Shown here one piece after another: positions 5,969 through 15,077 of a DNA stretch of 38,987 nucleotides. The stretch lies in contig CAMJTE010000003.1 in assembly GCA_946408655.1 (NCBI GenBank), positions 1 through 38,987 on the forward strand, written 5' to 3'. Position 1 is the first letter of the stretch. The number at the start of each line of letters is the position of its first letter. This DNA is from an uncultured Bacillales bacterium (lineage in GTDB: Bacteria > Bacillota_I > Bacilli_A > RF39 > UBA660). The notes below the pieces were generated by a model. The model made no database searches. It was given only the letters and a program-made list of their open reading frames with translations, and was not told the origin of the DNA. A program made the translations under genes and the position numbers.

Positions 5969-6045
5969 TGGTGACCCGTACGGGATTTGAACCCATGAAT
6001 GCATGCGTGAAAGGCATGTGTGTTAAGCCACTTCACCAACGGGCC
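5969..6045 (-). tRNA. tRNA-Glu(UUC)
   Basis: Cloverleaf GGCCCGT...TTC anticodon...GTTCAAATC...ACCA. Confidence 0.96.
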
Positions 6046-6053
6046 ATAATTAA

Positions 6054-6130
6054 TGGTGGGCCTGGATGGACTTGAACCATCGACCTCCCGCTTATCAGAC
6101 GGACGCTCTAACCAGCTGAGCTACAAGCCC
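6054..6130 (-). tRNA. tRNA-Ile(GAU)
   Basis: GGGCTTGTAGCTCAGCTGG...CT GAT AA...GTTCAAGTC...ACCA. Confidence 0.96.
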
Positions 6131-6714: not shown

Positions 6715-8454
6715 TTATCTTAACTTAATATGTGCCTCTCTAAGTTGTAATTCAGTTACTTCAGATGGAGCATTCATCATCATATCTGCACCTGATACAC
6801 TCATTGGGAATGCTTGAACCTCTCTTAGATTAGACTCACCTCTAAGTAACATAATCATTCTATCAATTCCTGGGGCCATACCAGCATGAGGAGGTGCACC
6901 AAACTTAAACGCATTATATAAAGATGTAAATTTTTCTTTTACAATACTCTTATTATATCCAACAAGTTCAAATGCTTTCTCTAATGCTTCAACGCTATGA
7001 TTACGAACTGCTCCTGAAGCCATTTCATTACCATTACATACAAAATCAAATTGACTGGCTATAATATCATCGATATTCTCTTTATCAAATGCTTCTATAC
7101 CATTCTTAGGCATTGAAAATGCATTATGACAGAAATCATATTTTTTTTCATCTTCATTATATTCAAACATTGGAAAATCGTTAATAATACAGAATTCAAA
7201 TACATTCTCATCTATTAATTCAAGACGACGCCCTAATTCTATTCTAATCATACCTGCTTGTTTAGTTGCAACTTTCTCTTTTCTATCAGCAATAAAGAAT
7301 AATACAGCATTTTCTTTTAAATTAGCTCTTTCAATTAAATTTTTTCTATCTTCATCTGTTAAGAACTTATCAATAGGTCCTTTAAAAGATAAATCATCAT
7401 TTACAGTAATATATCCAATACCAGGCATGCCAATAGTTTTAGCATAAGCTACTATTTCATTAAACCAACTATTTGATTTAGTACCTATACCATCTACTTT
7501 AATACCTCTAACTACACTACCTCTAAATGGCTTAAAATCACTATTTTCAAATATATCAGATAAATCAATAATTTCAAGAGGATTTCTTAAATCTGGTTTA
7601 TCTGTTCCATATTTTAACATAGCATCCTTATAACTAATACGTTTGAAAGGCGCCTTTGATACTTTTTTATCACTAAACTTAGTAAATGTATCATAGAATA
7701 CTTTCTCGCCTATTTTATATACATCTTCTTCATCAACAAAAGCCATTTCAAAGTCTAATTGATAAAATTCTAATGTTCTATCACTACGACAATCCTCATC
7801 TCTAAAACATGGCGCAATTTGATAATATTTATCAAAACCACTTACCATAAGTATTTCCTTAAAAATTTGAGGTGCTTGAGGCAATGCATAAAACTTACCT
7901 TTAAACTTACGCGATGGAATAATAAAATCTCTTGCTCCTTCTGGAGAAGATGCCGTAATTATTGGAGTTTGTACCTCCGTAAAATCCATAGAATCCATTT
8001 CGTTTCTTAAAAACTTTAAAAGCTCACTACGCATACGAATAGTATTTCCAACCTTCTCATTACGTAAATCTAAATAACGATATTTTAATCTAACATCCTC
8101 AGATACTTCTTTACTTTTAAGTATTTCAAAAGGCAACTCATTAGGTGCAATACCTAATACATCCAACTTTTCTACTAATAACTCAACAGTACCAGTAGAA
8201 ATATGATCATTATAATCATCCTCATTTCTTTTTCTAATAGTACCAGTTACTGTTACTGCTGATTCTTTAGTAAGTCCTTTAAATATAGAATCGTCGTTAC
8301 TTACTACTTGAATAATACCTGTATAATCTCTTACATCAACAAATATTACTCCTCCATGGTCTCTGATATTTGCAATCCATCCTGCAACTGTAACTTTATT
8401 ATCTACATCTAACTCGTTTATTTTACCACAATAACGATTACGATATTTACTCAT
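6715..8454 (-). CDS. aspS: Aspartate--tRNA ligase, probably non-discriminating
   Basis: RDHGG, RLKYRYLDLR, PEGARDF, YQIAPCFRDED, GAPPHAGMAPGIDR. Confidence 0.96.
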   Translation of the reverse strand: MSKYRNRYCGKINELDVDNKVTVAGWIANIRDHGGVIFVDVRDYTGIIQVVSNDDSIFKGLTKESAVTVTGTIRKRNEDDYNDHISTGTVELLVEKLDVLGIAPNELPFEILKSKEVSEDVRLKYRYLDLRNEKVGNTIRMRSELLKFLRNEMDSMDFTEVQTPIITASSPEGARDFIIPSRKFKGKFYALPQAPQIFKEILMVSGFDKYYQIAPCFRDEDCRSDRTLEFYQLDFEMAFVDEEDVYKIGEKVFYDTFTKFSDKKVSKAPFKRISYKDAMLKYGTDKPDLRNPLEIIDLSDIFENSDFKPFRGSVVRGIKVDGIGTKSNSWFNEIVAYAKTIGMPGIGYITVNDDLSFKGPIDKFLTDEDRKNLIERANLKENAVLFFIADRKEKVATKQAGMIRIELGRRLELIDENVFEFCIINDFPMFEYNEDEKKYDFCHNAFSMPKNGIEAFDKENIDDIIASQFDFVCNGNEMASGAVRNHSVEALEKAFELVGYNKSIVKEKFTSLYNAFKFGAPPHAGMAPGIDRMIMLLRGESNLREVQAFPMSVSGADMMMNAPSEVTELQLREAHIKLR

Positions 8455-8469
8455 AATATCTCCTTTCTT

Positions 8470-8988
8470 TTACATAAATAATCTCTTTTTTCTATAAGTT
8501 TTATATTCATCGTAGAACTCTTCTTCATTATCATTATAATAATCAACAAGTATTTTATCCTCTAAATTACAAGGAGTAGATATAATATAATACTTATTAT
8601 CTCTTAATACTTTTATATATCTATCTAATCCAGCATCTTTCTTAATCGTTTCAAAAGAAGCTACAATAATCTTTTTATCTAATTCAATATTCTTTAATTC
8701 ATCATTATAAAAATAATTAAGTTTACAAAGCGGATCAGCATTTATATAAGTATCTCCTGTATTTAATTTATCATTAGCAAATCTAAACTCTTTACCAGTA
8801 TTAATATCAATTAACATATCATCTAATTCTATTCCTAATTTAAATCCATCTATCTGAGAATAAATAAGTTCAAAATACTCACCATAATCATAATCATAAT
8901 AATAATCCTTAAATACTACTTTATATGAATAATAAATATTTATATCATCAACATTATATATTTTTTTCATAAAACTCACCATATTCAA
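8470..8988 (-). CDS. Hypothetical Tyr/Asp-rich protein inserted between gatB and aspS
   Basis: 172-aa ORF tightly packed in the operon; no family recognised. Confidence 0.55.
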   Translation of the reverse strand: MNMVSFMKKIYNVDDINIYYSYKVVFKDYYYDYDYGEYFELIYSQIDGFKLGIELDDMLIDINTGKEFRFANDKLNTGDTYINADPLCKLNYFYNDELKNIELDKKIIVASFETIKKDAGLDRYIKVLRDNKYYIISTPCNLEDKILVDYYNDNEEEFYDEYKTYRKKRLFM

Positions 8989-8991
8989 AAA

Positions 8992-10449
8992 TTATCTTTT
9001 ATCTATTTCTTCTTTAATTATTTTTGCAGTTAAACTAGGATTTGCTTGACCACGAGTAGCTTTCATAACTTGACCTACAAAGAAATCAAATACATTTCTA
9101 CCTTTACGATATTCTTCAATTAAATCTAAATGAGCATCTAGTATTTCAATTACTAATGGTCTTATTGTATCTTCATCCCCTACTTGTTTTAATCCAAGCT
9201 CATCTACTATTACTTGAGGTTCCTTTTCATCTGATAAACATTTATATAAAACATCTTTACTTTGTTTAGATGATATTTTACCGGTTTCAACCATATTCAT
9301 AATATCAAATAACATTTTTGGAGTTAAATAAATTTCATTAATACCAATATCATATTTATTTAAATGTCCTAATATTACTGATGTTAACCAGTTAGATGCT
9401 TTTTTAGGATTTCCCCCTAATTTAATTACTTCTTCATAGTAATCAGATACTTTTTTATCCTTAACTATAATTGTTGCATCATAATCAGAAAGCCCATATT
9501 TTTCAATATATTTTTCTTTTCTCTCACTTGCAAGTTCAGGAATATCTTTTCTAATTTCTTCTAACCATTCCTTAGAAATTTTATACTTAGGAATATTTGG
9601 TTCAACAAAATATTTATAGTCAATAGCATCAACTTTACTACGCATGTAAATAGTAGAAAGACTATCTTCATCCCAACGTCTAGTTTGTTGTTCCATCTTA
9701 TCGTATTCACCATTCTCTTTTAGTTCAGTTTGTCTATCTATTTCATAATTAATAGCATCTCTAACGCCACCAAAAGAGTTAACATTTTTAATCTCAATTT
9801 TAGTACCCCAGTTATTCATATCAGACTCATCTAAACTATCATCCATAATAGATACGTTTACATCACATCTAATTTGACCTTTTCTAGAATCTGCTTCTGA
9901 AATACCAGCATATTGATAAATACTTCTCATGGTTTCCAAGAAAGATACTGCTTCATCAGCTGAATGGAAACATGGTTCAGTAACTAATTCAAGAAGAGGT
10001 ACTCCGGCACGGTTATAATCTATTGTTGAATATGATGAATAATGATCAGTAGATGCAGCATCTTCTTCTAAGTGAAGATTGTTTATAACAGCTATTTTCT
10101 TCTCACCTTTACATTCATATTCTAAGGAACCATAAATACCAACTGGAGCTGGTTTAGTTTCTTGTGTAATTTGATAACCCTTAGGTAAATCAGGATAATA
10201 ATAGTTCTTTCTTTCAAAATACATATATTCTGGCTGTTTACAATTTAAAATCATTGACGCTTTTAAAGCCATTTTAACTGCTTCCTTATTTACAACTGGA
10301 AGTGTACCTGGAAAAGCCATATCTACTGGTCTAATATTTGAGTTTGGAATATCTTTATAAGAGTTTTCAGCGCTAGAAAATACTTTTGTATTAGTTTCAC
10401 TTATTTCACAGTGCATCTCTAAACCAATTAAAGCTTTATATTTACTCAT
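8992..10449 (-). CDS. gatB: Asp/Glu-tRNA amidotransferase subunit B
   Basis: IGLEMHCE, RKNYYYPDLPKGYQITQ, HLEEDA, RCDVNVS, FFVGQVMKATRG; ATG 10449 after GGAGG. Confidence 0.97.
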   Translation of the reverse strand: MSKYKALIGLEMHCEISETNTKVFSSAENSYKDIPNSNIRPVDMAFPGTLPVVNKEAVKMALKASMILNCKQPEYMYFERKNYYYPDLPKGYQITQETKPAPVGIYGSLEYECKGEKKIAVINNLHLEEDAASTDHYSSYSTIDYNRAGVPLLELVTEPCFHSADEAVSFLETMRSIYQYAGISEADSRKGQIRCDVNVSIMDDSLDESDMNNWGTKIEIKNVNSFGGVRDAINYEIDRQTELKENGEYDKMEQQTRRWDEDSLSTIYMRSKVDAIDYKYFVEPNIPKYKISKEWLEEIRKDIPELASERKEKYIEKYGLSDYDATIIVKDKKVSDYYEEVIKLGGNPKKASNWLTSVILGHLNKYDIGINEIYLTPKMLFDIMNMVETGKISSKQSKDVLYKCLSDEKEPQVIVDELGLKQVGDEDTIRPLVIEILDAHLDLIEEYRKGRNVFDFFVGQVMKATRGQANPSLTAKIIKEEIDKR

Positions 10450-11905
10450 AGCGTGCCTCCTTTGCAATTTGTCCTTTATAAGGCATAGTAGATTCTATTG
10501 CATAAGCAATATTTAATACGTTTGCATCATCATAACAATTACCAGTAATATTTAAACCAACTGGAAGATTATCTATAAATCCATCTGGAATAGTAATTGA
10601 AGGAAATCCTCCAAAGTTTCCAATTTGTAAATGTTCTTCTAATGCCTTAGTATTTTCATCAAGTATATCTTTTGAACCATCTAACTTTTTAGCTGGACCA
10701 GAACCTACTGGAAGTATTACTGCATCATAATCTTTAAATAATTCTTTCCATCTATCAACTAGTAGTCTTCTAACTCTTTGTGCATTATGGAAATATCTAT
10801 CTTTATTTTGCGCTTGTAATACATAAGAACCTATTACAAATCTTCTTTTAATAAGTGGTGAGAATCCTTTAGTACGATGATCCTTCATCATTTCAATATA
10901 ATTCTTTCCTTCTCCTCTAGGTCCAAAGATAAATCCAGTAAGGTTAGACATATTACTAGTTGCCTCCGCACATGATATAACTACATAAACTGATGCAAGT
11001 GCATCAAGTAACTTCTTATCTACACTAACCTCTTCTACTTCAATACCAATGCTTTTACATTTTTCAAGTACATCCATAAAATTAGATAAATGTGCTTTTA
11101 GTTCATCACTAGCATTAGGATACTCATTTATATCACATAACTCTTTTATATAACAAATTTTTTTACCTTTAACTTCTCCGGTAATAGATTTATATAGATT
11201 AATGTTACTAGAATCCCAACTAGTCATATCATTTTTATCTATACCTTTCATACCATCTACTACGATTGCAGCATCCTTAACAGACCTTGTTAAACAACCA
11301 CAGTGATCTAAACTTGATGCAAATGGAAATAATCCATAACGAGAAATCATACCATATGTAGGTTTATATCCAACAATTCCACAGTATGCAGCTGGTTTAC
11401 GAATTGAATCTCCGGTATCAGAACCTGTTGCATATGGATATACTCCTGCAGCAACTGACGCAGCGGAACCAGCAGATGATCCAGCACACATTCTAGATTT
11501 ATCCCATGGATTTAAAACAGTACCAGTATGACACGTAGTACCAGTACCACCCATACCAAATTCATCCATCGCACACTTTGTAACTCCAACTGCCCCCTTA
11601 GATTCTAGATTACTAATTGCAGTAGCAGTAAAAAATGGTACATAGTCTTTTAATGTATTAGATGAACCTGTAGATAGTATTCCTTTAGTTGAATAATTAT
11701 CTTTTATTCCATAAGGAATTCCTGATAATAACTCATCAGTTACCTTAGTTCCTTTTACATCATCCATAATTGTTACAAAACTATTACATTCATCTTGATT
11801 TTTATGAGCTTTATCTAATGATTCTTTAACAAGAGCTTCACTAGTAACATCACCACTAATTAACACTTCATGTATTTCTTCAATACTTTTACTCATGTAT
11901 TCCAT
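10442..11905 (-). CDS. gatA: Asp/Glu-tRNA amidotransferase subunit A
   Basis: Amidase signature GIKDN, GSSAGSAA, GSDTGDSIRKPA. Confidence 0.97.
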   Translation of the reverse strand: MEYMSKSIEEIHEVLISGDVTSEALVKESLDKAHKNQDECNSFVTIMDDVKGTKVTDELLSGIPYGIKDNYSTKGILSTGSSNTLKDYVPFFTATAISNLESKGAVGVTKCAMDEFGMGGTGTTCHTGTVLNPWDKSRMCAGSSAGSAASVAAGVYPYATGSDTGDSIRKPAAYCGIVGYKPTYGMISRYGLFPFASSLDHCGCLTRSVKDAAIVVDGMKGIDKNDMTSWDSSNINLYKSITGEVKGKKICYIKELCDINEYPNASDELKAHLSNFMDVLEKCKSIGIEVEEVSVDKKLLDALASVYVVISCAEATSNMSNLTGFIFGPRGEGKNYIEMMKDHRTKGFSPLIKRRFVIGSYVLQAQNKDRYFHNAQRVRRLLVDRWKELFKDYDAVILPVGSGPAKKLDGSKDILDENTKALEEHLQIGNFGGFPSITIPDGFIDNLPVGLNITGNCYDDANVLNIAYAIESTMPYKGQIAKEARYE

Positions 11906-12201
11906 TATTCCACCACCTTTGGTACTCTAACCTCATCATTAATATAATCATCACAGTTAGCTAGTAAATCGTCAATATCTACTGATTCTTCAACAACATC
12001 TTCTCTTAACTCATACACAAAGCCATCTAATGTATGTGTCATAGGTTCTACTGATTCAATATTATCAATCTCCATTACCTTCGCAATATCTGCATCAATA
12101 ATATTAAATTCATCTAAAACCATCTTGTTCTCTTCATCAGTTAAACCAATTAACAACTTATCTGCATAATCATCAACCATCTCTTTTGTAAACTTCTCCA
12201 T
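11905..12201 (-). CDS. gatC: Asp/Glu-tRNA amidotransferase subunit C
   Basis: 98 aa with LREDVV and VPKVV motifs; TAATG-coupled to gatA. Confidence 0.92.
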   Translation of the reverse strand: MEKFTKEMVDDYADKLLIGLTDEENKMVLDEFNIIDADIAKVMEIDNIESVEPMTHTLDGFVYELREDVVEESVDIDDLLANCDDYINDEVRVPKVVE

Positions 12202-12223
12202 AATATTCCTCCCTTTATAATAT

Positions 12224-12248
12224 AAAAAAACAAGTCCAACGGACTTGT
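12224..12248 (-). terminator. Intrinsic terminator between the tRNA-Asn pair and gatC
   Basis: Minus strand ACAAGTCC-gtt-GGACTTGT-TTTTTT. Confidence 0.85.
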
Positions 12249-12258
12249 AATTATCAAA

Positions 12259-12334
12259 TGGCGCCTAATGTAGGACTCGAACCTACGACCTATCGGTTAA
12301 CAGCCGAGTGCTCTACCAACTGAGCTAATTAGGC
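12259..12334 (-). tRNA. tRNA-Asn(GUU), downstream copy
   Basis: GCCTAAT...CT GTT AA...ATTAGGC GCCA, 76 nt. Confidence 0.97.
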
Positions 12335-12337
12335 ATC

Positions 12338-12413
12338 TGGCGCTTAATGTAGGACTCGAACCTACGACCTATCGGTTAACAGCCGAGTGCTCTACCAACT
12401 GAGCTAATTAAGC
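12338..12413 (-). tRNA. tRNA-Asn(GUU), upstream copy
   Basis: GCTTAAT...CT GTT AA...ATTAAGC GCCA, 76 nt. Confidence 0.97.
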
Positions 12414-12420
12414 ATTTCCT

Positions 12421-12622
12421 GTCCGCTATTTTGGGACGATAATACCATCTATTTATCGCGGTGCCACCCAAATTGCCATATAATGACCTCTCATTAGTTA
12501 TAACGGGCTTCCCCGACTCACGTACCAAATGGTTGTTATTCATAATATGCTTAATTGTTAGCTTCCACCATACCTAACTCGCTTTAATCAGTTTATATTA
12601 CTACTTCTCCATTTATAGTTTT
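12421..12622 (-). promoter_or_regulatory. T-box riboswitch, probable Asn (AAC) specifier
   Basis: Stem I with AGAAGUA / GAA-U-AAC-A specifier loop, GCGAG bulge and GGUGGAAG loop; T-box AAUUUGGGUGGCACCGCG with antiterminator closing on UUAUCGUCCCAA. Confidence 0.92.
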
Positions 12623-12649
12623 AATCCCCTAAAAAACAGCTACGAATTA

Positions 12650-12678
12650 ATTATAGAAGAAATGCCACACTTTGTCAA
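12650..12678 (-). promoter_or_regulatory. SigA promoter of the T-box/tRNA-Asn/gatCAB-aspS unit
   Basis: Perfect TTGACA-N17-TATAAT. Confidence 0.85.
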
Positions 12679-12765
12679 TAGTATTTTTCAATTTTTCTAA
12701 AAAAGCACCATAGCTAATATTATATGTAAAAAGAAAAAATCGTACTACTAAAGCATTAATATTTA

Positions 12766-12936
12766 CTATCTAGCCTTAACATACGATAATTTTTCTTCAG
12801 TTAACATAGTTTCTAATTCTTCTTTTAATAATTCATAAGTTGGTATAACTCCTAATGCGCATATTTTCATATATGCTCTACCATAAGCAATCTTACCATA
12901 ATCTAATAATAATTCTACCAATCTTCTATCGTTCAT
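12766..12936 (-). CDS. Small hypothetical protein, about 56 aa
   Basis: AAAGGAG RBS before ATG 12936; upstream TTGCAT-N16-TATAAT with TG extension. Confidence 0.6.
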   Translation of the reverse strand: MNDRRLVELLLDYGKIAYGRAYMKICALGVIPTYELLKEELETMLTEEKLSYVKAR

Positions 12937-13025
12937 ATTATCTCCTTTCACACACGAGATAGTATTATAACAGAATTTAAATAAAATGCAAATCCAATTA
13001 TATAATTAATTACAACTTATAATTT

Positions 13026-13289
13026 TTAAAATATATCGTTATAAAATGTTTTCTTTTTAATCTTTTCATCTTTACTTATTTTTGCTTGATTATACATTTT
13101 AGCAAACTTTTCGTCTCTTTTTGGTCTAGTAGCACCAAATCTATCAATAAATTCTTCTGCTTTTATTGAATATATTTTACTATTTTTAGCAAGATAAAGC
13201 ATTGAACAAATTCTAACATTATTGATTACTTCTTTAATATCTTGATAACTATATTTTCTTGACATGTAAATTATCCCTTCATAGGTCAT
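13026..13289 (-). CDS. Hypothetical protein or gene remnant, 87 aa
   Basis: ORF only; no good RBS. Confidence 0.35.
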   Translation of the reverse strand: MTYEGIIYMSRKYSYQDIKEVINNVRICSMLYLAKNSKIYSIKAEEFIDRFGATRPKRDEKFAKMYNQAKISKDEKIKKKTFYNDIF

Positions 13290-13340
13290 TTATTCTAACA
13301 ACAAAATTAAAATAATGCAACACTATTTCAATAAATCATT

Positions 13341-13457
13341 CTATATCAACTCATATTTTCGTACAGTAATTCTAGGATCACTACAATAACTCATTACAAA
13401 CTCATTGTCTTCTCTTGCAATAATAATGCCAATGGTTTTATCTTGATTAATTGACTT
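13341..13457 (-). pseudogene. C-terminal remnant of a DUF1016/YhcG-type PD-(D/E)XK protein
   Basis: Translates KSINQDKTIGIIIAREDNEFVMSYCSDPRITVRKYELI*, resembling the YhcG C-terminus; no start codon or N-terminal part. Confidence 0.6.
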
Positions 13458-13491
13458 TGCTTGTGACCAAATAATCTTTACAATTATATTA

Positions 13492-14769
13492 TTAATTTTT
13501 TAGTGAAGTTATAGGTAAAACAATTACTCCATCTTCCCTTGTATATACTGCATTAGATAAGCCACATATAACACATAATGATTTTGGAGGTTTTACACCT
13601 TTTTCTATCATGCTATTTTTTATACGAACAAGATTATTTGCAGCTTCTTCTATTTGATTTGCTCCTAATTTAATTTCAAATGCCGCATAATCTCCATCAG
13701 AGAACTCAATAACAGCATCAAATTCATTACCATCGTAGTCTTGATAATGAAAAATGTTCCAATCATTGGCCTCAGCATATATTCTAAGATCACGAATAAC
13801 CATCGCTTCAAAATAAAAGCCAAATGCATTTAAATCATTAACACACATATCAACTGTCATATTTAGAATAGAAGTTGCAATTGATGGATCAACAAAATGC
13901 CTTTTCTCCATTTGTTTTACACGCATTCTGCTTCTTAGATTTGAATTAAATGGCAATTGATTTTCTATTAAAAAAAGTTTATTTAAATCTCCCAAATATT
14001 CTGTTATAGTTTTAACATCAATATCTTCGCTATCCACTTCTTCGATATCTGATTTTAATTTTGCAACTGATACTGTTGTAGATTCATTTCTTGCAAGAGA
14101 TCTCAACAACAGCATAACTTTATGTAGATCTCTTTTTACATCACTAATTCTATCAATATCCATATCAATTATCTCTTGAATATATTCTTTTGGTAATTTT
14201 ATTGCTTCATCAAAAGGTACATTAATACTTCCAGGAAATCCTCCCCTTAAAACTAATTTTATAATATCTTTTAACCCAATCTCACCAGTTAATTTCCCTT
14301 TTACTTTATTATTATAAATATCTTTTAATGATACATCACCAGTAGAGTCACCTGATTCATATAAACTCATTGGATACATTTTTATCTTCTTAATTCTTCC
14401 TGCACCTGAATGTTTGATTTTCTTCTTTTGTTTATCAGATAGAACAGTTGAACCTGTTAATATATATTTTCCTTTAACTCCATCTTCATCACACTTATAT
14501 CTAGTTGCATCCCAAATTTCAGGTACTTCTTGCCATTCATCAATCAACCTTGGTGTTTCACCTTCAAATATCAAAGATACATCAGTTTCAGCAAGACGTC
14601 TATTTTGATAATTACCTTTAGGGTCCATTAGTAAAAATTCACTATTTGTTTGATTTCTTCCAGCCCAAGTTTTACCAATCCATTTCGCTCCAACAATATT
14701 AATTGCCCCATATGCTTTCATACTATTTTCAATTTCTTTATCAATCAATCTTTTTCTATATTTCTCCAT
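13492..14769 (-). CDS. AAA_14 ATPase with DUF4143 C-terminal domain
   Basis: GAKWIGKT, LIDEWQ, YILTGS, HSGAGRI, KRHFVDPS, E.DAV...FEIKLG. Confidence 0.88.
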   Translation of the reverse strand: MEKYRKRLIDKEIENSMKAYGAINIVGAKWIGKTWAGRNQTNSEFLLMDPKGNYQNRRLAETDVSLIFEGETPRLIDEWQEVPEIWDATRYKCDEDGVKGKYILTGSTVLSDKQKKKIKHSGAGRIKKIKMYPMSLYESGDSTGDVSLKDIYNNKVKGKLTGEIGLKDIIKLVLRGGFPGSINVPFDEAIKLPKEYIQEIIDMDIDRISDVKRDLHKVMLLLRSLARNESTTVSVAKLKSDIEEVDSEDIDVKTITEYLGDLNKLFLIENQLPFNSNLRSRMRVKQMEKRHFVDPSIATSILNMTVDMCVNDLNAFGFYFEAMVIRDLRIYAEANDWNIFHYQDYDGNEFDAVIEFSDGDYAAFEIKLGANQIEEAANNLVRIKNSMIEKGVKPPKSLCVICGLSNAVYTREDGVIVLPITSLKN

Positions 14770-15077
14770 ATAAATTCCTCCAAACACATAATTATTATAT
14801 TACGTAGATATAATTTTTTCAATATTTATCGGATTATTTTTTTAAATTTTATTGGATGACTTTTTCTAAATTTAATGGTATATATTTTTTAGTTTTAACA
14901 TTAGCTTACTCATGACAAACTAAATAATCATCATTTTCTTTTCCTAATAATGACAATAATTTTATTCTAATCATTAATTGGAAATAGTATCTATGCGATA
15001 TTCCAGTTTAAATTGGTCCCTAATGTAGACTAATCCTTATAATTACTAAACAAAACTTATCAATGCAAATTGCAAGA

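Follow-up and report, generated by a model that had tools for sequence, protein, structure and literature searches.

The stretch from position 1 to 38,987 of contig CAMJTE010000003.1 (assembly GCA_946408655.1), from an uncultured gut bacterium assigned to the Bacillales and analysed here as the window, carries on its minus strand a T-box leader predicted to be specific for asparagine (Asn), and the expression platform of this leader appears to be split by the genome's own tRNA-Asn genes. We consider it probable that the leader works as a relay, in which tRNA-Asn would be made constitutively and read-through into the downstream gatCAB-orf172-aspS operon would depend on uncharged tRNA-Asn. The argument is built on the observed anatomy of the leader, its conservation among relatives, the covariation of a long-range helix and the thermodynamic coherence of the scheme.

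The proposed relay would use five short strands: the antiterminator 5' strand, its 3' partner a (CGUCCC), a' (UAGCGGAC), b and b'. The last two would form the arms of the only U-tailed terminator, which lies about 175 nt beyond a', past two tRNA genes, and the possible helices (the antiterminator, a:a', a':b or b:b') would be mutually exclusive. With aminoacylated tRNA-Asn, a and a' would pair; as this hairpin has no U-tract, polymerase would continue through both tRNAs, and b-b' would stop transcription before gatC. Uncharged tRNA-Asn, bound via the AAC specifier and the UGGC bulge, would hold the antiterminator and leave a' free. The folded tRNAs would draw a' and b near each other, with a flank helix closing the array in most relatives, a' would capture the emerging b, b' could not build the terminator, and polymerase would enter gatCAB-orf172-aspS. 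We infer that tRNA binds this leader, that binding alters termination and that RNase P cleaves only after the relay has acted. Binding in cis, by which a tRNA-Asn still nascent and unprocessed would occupy the T-box of its own transcript, was set aside on the known mechanism, as the 3' end of such a tRNA would not be free.

Leader anatomy

The leader comprises the following features, in transcript order:

12650..12678 (-): sigma-70-type promoter TTGACA-17-TATAAT, 12/12 consensus matches, predicted from consensus only
12429..12625 (-): T-box leader (Stem I, specifier loop, antiterminator), RF00230, 88.3 bits, E 8e-20
12535..12537 (-): specifier codon AAC (Asn), context GAA-U-AAC-A, read from the sequence and the Rfam alignment
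12432..12470 (-): antiterminator helix with bulge UGGCACC (UGGC at 12463-12466), from the Rfam alignment
12421..12428 (-): putative relay strand a', UAGCGGAC, with GUCC of strand a, or the distal terminator 5' arm and loop, as partner
12338..12413 (-): tRNA-Asn (GTT) copy 1 with encoded CCA, ARAGORN; Rfam tRNA, 73.5 bits
12259..12334 (-): tRNA-Asn (GTT) copy 2 with encoded CCA, ARAGORN; Rfam tRNA, 73.6 bits
12237..12244 (-): strand b and loop, GUCCGUUG, predicted helix 1 partner of a'; duplex -10.5 kcal/mol, shuffle p 0.005
12224..12248 (-): distal intrinsic terminator, ACAAGUCC-GUU-GGACUUGU followed by a U-run; hairpin 12248..12230, -8.1 kcal/mol

This order confirms the initial annotation in each of its elements, namely a perfect SigA promoter (12/12 consensus, 12678..12650), an Asn T-box with an AAC specifier and a UGGC bulge facing GCCA (RF00230 at 12625..12429, 88.3 bits; both tRNAs end in GCCA), two tRNA-Asn genes inside the leader (12413..12338 and 12334..12259, by ARAGORN and Rfam) and, past them, the only U-tailed terminator, followed by gatCAB-orf-aspS with gatC starting at 12201. 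The spacing of 17 nt that it gave before the first tRNA needs correction: 15 nt (UAGCGGACAGGAAAU), devoid of any U-run, separate the Rfam T-box end from tRNA 1.

The T-box covers positions 1-219 of the RF00230 covariance model, its full length. The specifier context in the window is GAAUAACAA, one A more than in relatives, most of which share GAAUAACAC (GAA-U-AAC-A); another, overlapping AAC stands at 12532-12534 in the same loop. The AAC specifier is matched by the tRNA-Asn(GTT) that the window encodes, and the UGGC bulge is complementary to the GCCA 3' end (with discriminator G) of both tRNA-Asn genes. The combination of discriminator G with a UGGC or UGGU bulge was found in all 67 tabulated loci. 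Strand a is the antiterminator 3' strand, AUCGUCCC (12433-12440, minus strand).

What directly follows the antiterminator is a GUCC/GGAC hairpin and then AGGAAAU, with no terminator-like site detected there, as had been claimed at the outset. Within 11500-13500 the distal terminator is the sole terminator-like site (shuffled sequences average 0.3), and its 8 pairs (4 of them G-C), loop of 3 and immediately adjoining U-run are those of an intrinsic terminator. Because the features of a T-box are present in sequence and structure except for the Rfam threshold and the adjacent U-tailed terminator, the element is described here as a predicted T-box-like aptamer with a non-canonical expression platform.

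A consensus scan of 12201-12430, which by itself cannot prove absence, returned no promoter for gatC except a 9/12 match inside the antiterminator. This weak promoter-like match (GTGGCA-17-TATTAT, with TG) lies at 12439-12467 on the minus strand; if it were active, the tRNAs would be transcribed without the T-box aptamer. Low-scoring YrlA and Plastid-ycf2 matches over the tRNAs were attributed to the tandem tRNAs, as by-products.

Relatives and the helix across the tRNA array

A 501-nt query was compared with 200 other genera of the same family, and an Rfam run on 14 fetched loci identified a T-box in 13 of them; 11 of these T-boxes immediately precede a tRNA-Asn array and two come after the tRNAs. 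Pattern scans returned at least 119 stretches from species-representative genomes (many of them chance matches, in GC-rich phyla) and 51 from metagenome contigs. Among the matches listed, 122 joined a T-box core to a tRNA; removing 11 in which the array is followed by fewer than 60 nt, one with a non-Asn tRNA in the array and 12 exact duplicates left 98 non-identical loci, across which the layout T-box, one to six tRNA-Asn genes, gatC recurs. The named records are gut metagenome-assembled genomes labelled Bacilli, Tenericutes, Mollicutes or Erysipelotrichaceae, and one Candidatus Coprosoma.

The 98 loci show two forms. In 37 of them, the proximal-U-run form, the first tRNA is preceded by a canonical T-box terminator, a long hairpin built with the antiterminator 3' strand and followed by a U-run, and the array is followed directly by the gatC ribosome-binding site, by an unrelated distal hairpin with a U-run (15 loci) or by a second T-box. 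In the other 61, which include the window, a proximal hairpin of 4-10 bp is retained and the U-run is gone; a distal hairpin with a U-run lies between the last tRNA and gatC in 55 of these 61 U-less loci. Their aptamers are intact (120-144 bits, AAC specifier, UGGN bulge, discriminator G). In the five relatives checked, one of them a single-contig 1.5-Mb chromosome with the proximal-U-run form, every full-length tRNA-Asn match sits in a T-box-linked array. One reading, evenly balanced in our judgement, is that an uncultured gut Bacilli family keeps all its tRNA-Asn genes inside Asn T-box transcripts of two kinds, a tRNA-autoregulated form and a five-strand relay form. In the former, tRNA-Asn would be transcribed only past a terminator opened by uncharged tRNA-Asn, and would thus autoregulate its own synthesis. 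In the form found in the window, the U-tract would have moved beyond the tRNA genes and the relay helix would carry the T-box decision there, so that the folded ligand genes would become part of the expression platform.

Complementarity was evaluated with RNAduplex between two stretches, one running from the antiterminator to tRNA 1 and the other starting after the last tRNA and ending in the distal terminator loop, using shuffled sequences as control. The window duplex UAGCGGAC/GUCCGUUG has 8 bp (two of them G-U) and reaches -10.5 kcal/mol, against -5.3 in shuffles (p 0.005). The initial annotation had described this pairing as AGCGGAC with GUCCGUU: its coordinates, 12427..12421 and 12244..12238, are exact, and its length of 7 bp extends to 8 bp. 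Mean duplex energy in U-less loci is -12.27 kcal/mol versus -5.41 when shuffled, with p<=0.05 in 48 of 55, whereas in proximal-U-run loci it is -8.44 versus -7.52 kcal/mol, with p<=0.05 in 1 of 15. Judging from these sequences, a'-b complementarity is specific to loci without a proximal U-tract.

The duplex consists of helix 1, in which a' pairs with the distal terminator 5' arm and loop (b), and helix 2, the flank helix, which closes the tRNA array and is usual in U-less relatives; the initial annotation mentioned neither the flank helix nor the sister layout with its T-box terminator before the tRNA genes. Among 14 de-replicated loci, cognate partners average -11.52 and deranged partners -7.11 (sd 0.68), and none of 10000 derangements reaches the cognate mean. 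On 12 representatives (a run that left out L017, L021, L104 and L151), helix 1 alone was equalled in 0 of 7435 derangements and the flank helix alone in 103 of 7449. The predicted long-range pairing is thus cognate-specific. The same overlap logic is also written in unrelated sequence, as AGUUACUAU/AUAGUAACU with distal arms CUAGUUA/UAACUAG in L194 and as AACUGUUUA/UAAACAGU in L021.

Covariation of the two segments across orthologous leaders, a check that the initial annotation had proposed and that turned out in favour of its interpretation, was evaluated in a MAFFT alignment (A1) of 26 U-less loci with two tRNAs, where the 5-bp core of helix 1 occupies columns 47-51 and 253-257. This core is paired in 91.5% of 130 cells, compared with 81.4 +/- 1.5% after shuffling and 21-51% in slid registers; 0/500 shuffles reach the observed value, a count that is not a probability because the sequences are related. 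Both sides have changed at 3 of the 5 pairs (17 cells versus 6.0 expected), and the covariation score is 0.433 versus 0.230 shuffled, with 0/500 shuffles, a count to be read in the same way. Most of the unpaired cells come from four sequences of the window's own sub-clade, shifted by a few columns. Column 48 is particularly informative: 13 sequences have G there and 11-13 have A, and its relay partner, column 256, co-varies (GC in 13, AU in 11), while the T-box consensus fixes its alternative partner, C37, so that this latter pair is lost in 13 of 26 sequences (CG 13, other 13). Similarly, in L055 and L148, a' has become GGC and b GCC, with a still GUC. As MAFFT places the flank helix in no common columns, it is covered by the duplex and derangement tests only. 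The proximal hairpin is conserved as well (82% of its cells paired in A1).

For folding, the tRNAs were forced into cloverleaves and the probability of the distal terminator stem was read out, with the antiterminator enforced and its bulge blocked (ON) or with the antiterminator pairs alone forbidden (apo). In the window this probability is 0.04 ON and 0.64 apo, and the a'-b helix is present in the minimum-free-energy ON structure; blocking the whole antiterminator 5' strand, as an OFF variant, gives 0.82. Constrained folding thus reproduces for the window the switch that the initial annotation had postulated. Across 53 U-less loci (two were left out, their tRNAs not being 76 nt long or the locus edge intervening), the mean is 0.46 ON and 0.82 apo, with a drop of at least 0.3 in 24/53 and a passage from above 0.75 to below 0.25 in 18/53. 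The 15 proximal-U-run loci with a distal hairpin average 0.83 ON and 0.88 apo, and the same thresholds are passed by 1/15 and 0/15.

Several loci depart from the common layouts. The order in L020 is conventional: two tRNA-Asn genes stand between a promoter and a terminator, and a further promoter then precedes an Asn T-box, its canonical terminator and gatC. Two Asn T-boxes stand in series on the same strand in L029 (1044-1973), L061, L088, L168 and L208, where the first T-box and its canonical terminator are followed by one to five tRNA-Asn genes and then directly by the second T-box, with no evident promoter between. In L018 (2112-2272) and in G201 (contig C1, around 316142), the T-box is immediately preceded by tRNA-Ile and tRNA-Glu, with a spacing of about 20 nt, and therefore appears to sit inside a larger tRNA operon. 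A promoter scan of the 300 nt upstream of the T-box in L114 found no promoter-like site. Finally, distal hairpins in loci with a canonical proximal terminator often read ...AGGUCGUAGGU...CCUAC..., matching by eye the variable loop and T-arm of tRNA-Asn; they follow the tRNA array in L018, L022, L056, L078, L111, L121, L122, L147 and L211, and resemble a tRNA copy that has decayed into a terminator. An aptamer tree of the leaders was midpoint-rooted and has no support values, and no number of U-less origins is claimed from it.

Competing explanations and known systems

A number of results weigh against the relay. The window is one of its weaker members: its T-box, at 88.3 bits, does not reach the RF00230 gathering score of 93 bits in the covariance-model scan, for which reason it is absent from a default Rfam scan (orthologous leaders reach 92.9-144.3 bits), Stem I looks by eye to be degenerate at its base, the K-turn region, the proximal hairpin has just 4-5 bp, and there is hardly any flank helix. 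Its ON and apo structures are nearly isoenergetic (-63.3 versus -63.2 kcal/mol), and with the antiterminator unconstrained the probability of the distal terminator is already down to 0.13, so that this locus could be mostly ON. Among the U-less loci, 29/53 show no equilibrium switch (they tend to have stronger distal hairpins, -8.9 versus -7.0 kcal/mol), and two go the wrong way, L179 (0.95 ON versus 0.00 apo) and L170 (0.49 versus 0.17). The compensatory events are few and run along sub-clades. In addition, b' could displace a' quickly, or RNase P could sever a' before b is made. Four metatranscriptome runs, available as contigs, yielded mostly tRNA pieces of other organisms and a few leader contigs, at 90-95% identity; no contig in these runs joins tRNA 2 to gatC and, since contigs cannot show transcript ends, this speaks neither for nor against the relay.

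The long-range helices might instead serve RNA processing or stability, like the stems on either side of rRNAs, guiding nuclease release of the tRNAs or trimming of the gatCAB mRNA, and the distal terminator would then be a leaky tRNA-operon terminator. That the flank helix encloses the tRNA array exactly would fit, as would the unconditional distal terminator that proximal-U-run loci often also have before gatC, where partial read-through is evidently enough. We nevertheless regard this explanation as unlikely. A processing stem has no need of an a' that matches both the antiterminator 3' strand and the terminator 5' arm. The helix 1 core covaries even at the cost of the a-a' pair, and loci with a proximal U-tract lack the complementarity (1/15); moreover, with 5-12 bp in each segment and interrupted by an internal loop, the helices would make short substrates for RNase III.

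We find it unlikely that the window T-box is a decaying relic, its leader constitutive since the loss of the U-tract and its a'/b complementarity inherited, unselected, from a duplicated terminator, although the state of this particular leader invites the idea: it has the lowest T-box score in the set (88.3 bits), a degenerate Stem I base, a proximal hairpin of 4-5 bp and an unconstrained ensemble that already disfavours the terminator (0.13), and b resembles a (GUCC) just as b' resembles a' (GGAC). Specifier, bulge and antiterminator are nonetheless intact over the 61 U-less loci, with aptamers of up to 144 bits; the matched changes of L055 and L148 (b to GCC and a' to GGC, a still GUC) speak against simple repeat homogenisation, and L194 and L021 use unrelated sequences.

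The U-less proximal hairpin could also still terminate or pause polymerase, via a factor or U-rich tails, in which case both the tRNA genes and gatCAB would answer to the T-box, like those of the sister layout. Three loci look like possible intermediates, L102 with UUUUU and L097 and L052 with U-rich tails after the proximal hairpin, their distal terminators already complementary to the relay strand; in L102 the distal-terminator probability is 0.32 ON versus 0.97 OFF. Such intermediates, together with the conservation of the proximal hairpin, argue for a residual proximal stop. In the window, though, a 4-bp stem is followed by AGGAAAU and no terminator-like site was detected at the proximal hairpin, and a stop at this position leaves the covarying a'-b helix unexplained; we think it very unlikely.

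The T-box is a textbook tRNA-sensing riboswitch with a compact platform, whose terminator overlaps the antiterminator, as in the canonical transcriptional type of Bacillus tyrS and glyQS. Like these (RF00230), the window element has a Stem I specifier codon, a UGGN bulge matching the tRNA NCCA end, a predicted control over aminoacylation genes and an antiterminator 3' strand with an alternative partner. It differs in that the alternative hairpin has no U-tract and is followed by two genes for the ligand tRNA, and in that the U-tailed terminator, about 175 nt downstream, would be reached through a third alternative helix. The trp leader is a multi-segment attenuator (helices 1:2, 2:3 and 3:4) in which a chain of mutually exclusive helices likewise relays a signal to a terminator, but the sensor in the window would be a tRNA-binding aptamer rather than a translating ribosome, and one link would span two folded tRNAs. 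In the E. coli thrU-tyrU-glyT-thrT-tufB operon, tRNA genes are co-transcribed ahead of a translation gene; tRNAs and mRNA share one transcript and are parted by processing, as would be the case here, but that operon has no riboswitch and no conditional terminator between tRNAs and mRNA. The sister layout of the same family (37/98 loci) has the aptamer, tRNA-Asn array and downstream operon of the window; it differs in placing the terminator before the tRNAs, with the tRNA genes themselves predicted to be T-box-controlled, and in its rare relay complementarity (1/15).

An Asn-reading T-box over a tRNA-dependent transamidation operon is known from Clostridium acetobutylicum, where the NT-box, with two overlapping codons for Asn and Glu, controls such an operon (Saad et al. 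2013, in the portion of review PMC4052509 available to us, which does not mention tRNA genes in the NT-box leader). In the window, GAA precedes AAC in the specifier loop, but GAA is the usual conserved loop motif. The accessible portion of Wels et al. 2008 (PMC2494555) reports no T-boxes upstream of amidotransferase genes, and that of the TBDB paper (PMC7778990) mentions tRNA genes only as ligand sources. In full-text literature, a scope that leaves most subscription journals and supplements outside and thus makes a prior description possible, we met neither a T-box with tRNA genes behind it nor a terminator that is distal and reached by a relay.

If the relay holds, a natural riboswitch decision would be sent roughly 175 nt downstream across folded RNAs, and this would be, within the literature searched, the first T-box transcript found to encode its own ligand. 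Five short strands with natural compensatory variants would offer a system in which to study strand exchange during transcription and how folding, RNase P processing and termination compete in time. A separate question posed by the sister layout is how tRNA supply persists when its only genes lie behind a terminator needing the same uncharged tRNA. The case also indicates that functional-looking T-boxes of gut lineages with reduced genomes escape the default thresholds of Rfam.

Operon and genome context

The operon behind the leader, in transcript order, is as follows:

11905..12201 (-): gatC; Pfam GatC 33.2 bits, above cut-off, and TIGR00135 40 bits, below cut-off
10442..11905 (-): gatA; TIGR00132, 425.7 bits, E 2e-127, below the curated cut-off of 481
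8992..10467 (-): gatB; NF004012, 556.8 bits, above cut-off
8470..8988 (-): 172-aa open reading frame (ORF) between gatB and aspS; no match in NCBIfam and Pfam
6715..8454 (-): aspS, bacterial-type aspartyl-tRNA synthetase; NF001750, 723.6 bits
6247-6711 (-): 154-aa ORF after aspS; weak 3'-5' exonuclease/PolC-exonuclease similarity, E about 7e-4

In the assembly (1.44 Mb, 84% complete, 11 T-box matches), the leader-embedded pair are the only tRNA-Asn genes among the 31 tRNAs found. No asparaginyl-tRNA synthetase gene (asnS) matches above cut-off at this completeness, the matches being a lysS-like gene and two aspS; an AsnB-type asparagine synthetase was found and AsnA was not. The lack of an AsnRS match and the leader-embedded pair as sole tRNA-Asn genes count in favour of the relay; as the absence of AsnRS is taken from an 84%-complete assembly, the missing part may hold the gene, which would weigh against it.

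The indirect pathway to Asn-tRNA combines a non-discriminating AspRS with GatCAB, and candidates for these parts, gatCAB and two aspS, are present in the assembly. From this established pathway, the gatCAB-aspS operon would be expected to load tRNA-Asn, with its aspS as the copy charging tRNA-Asn. The second aspS (about 582 aa, contig C53 of the same assembly) has its own T-box (100.4 bits; L005, 1501-1676, minus strand), with a GAA-GAC-A specifier loop that reads Asp; with an Asp T-box on C53 and an Asn T-box in the window, there is therefore one aspS behind each. Since a T-box senses only the acylation state of the tRNA 3' end, the one in the window would report the AspRS step and not amidation.

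Upstream of the leader, the neighbouring gene at 13492-14787 (minus strand) encodes a 431-aa protein with AAA_14 and DUF4143 domains, and no family match was found for the two small ORFs, of 61 and 87 aa, that lie on its leader side before the leader itself. Downstream of the gatCAB-aspS operon, the window carries tRNA-Ile and tRNA-Glu at 5969-6130.

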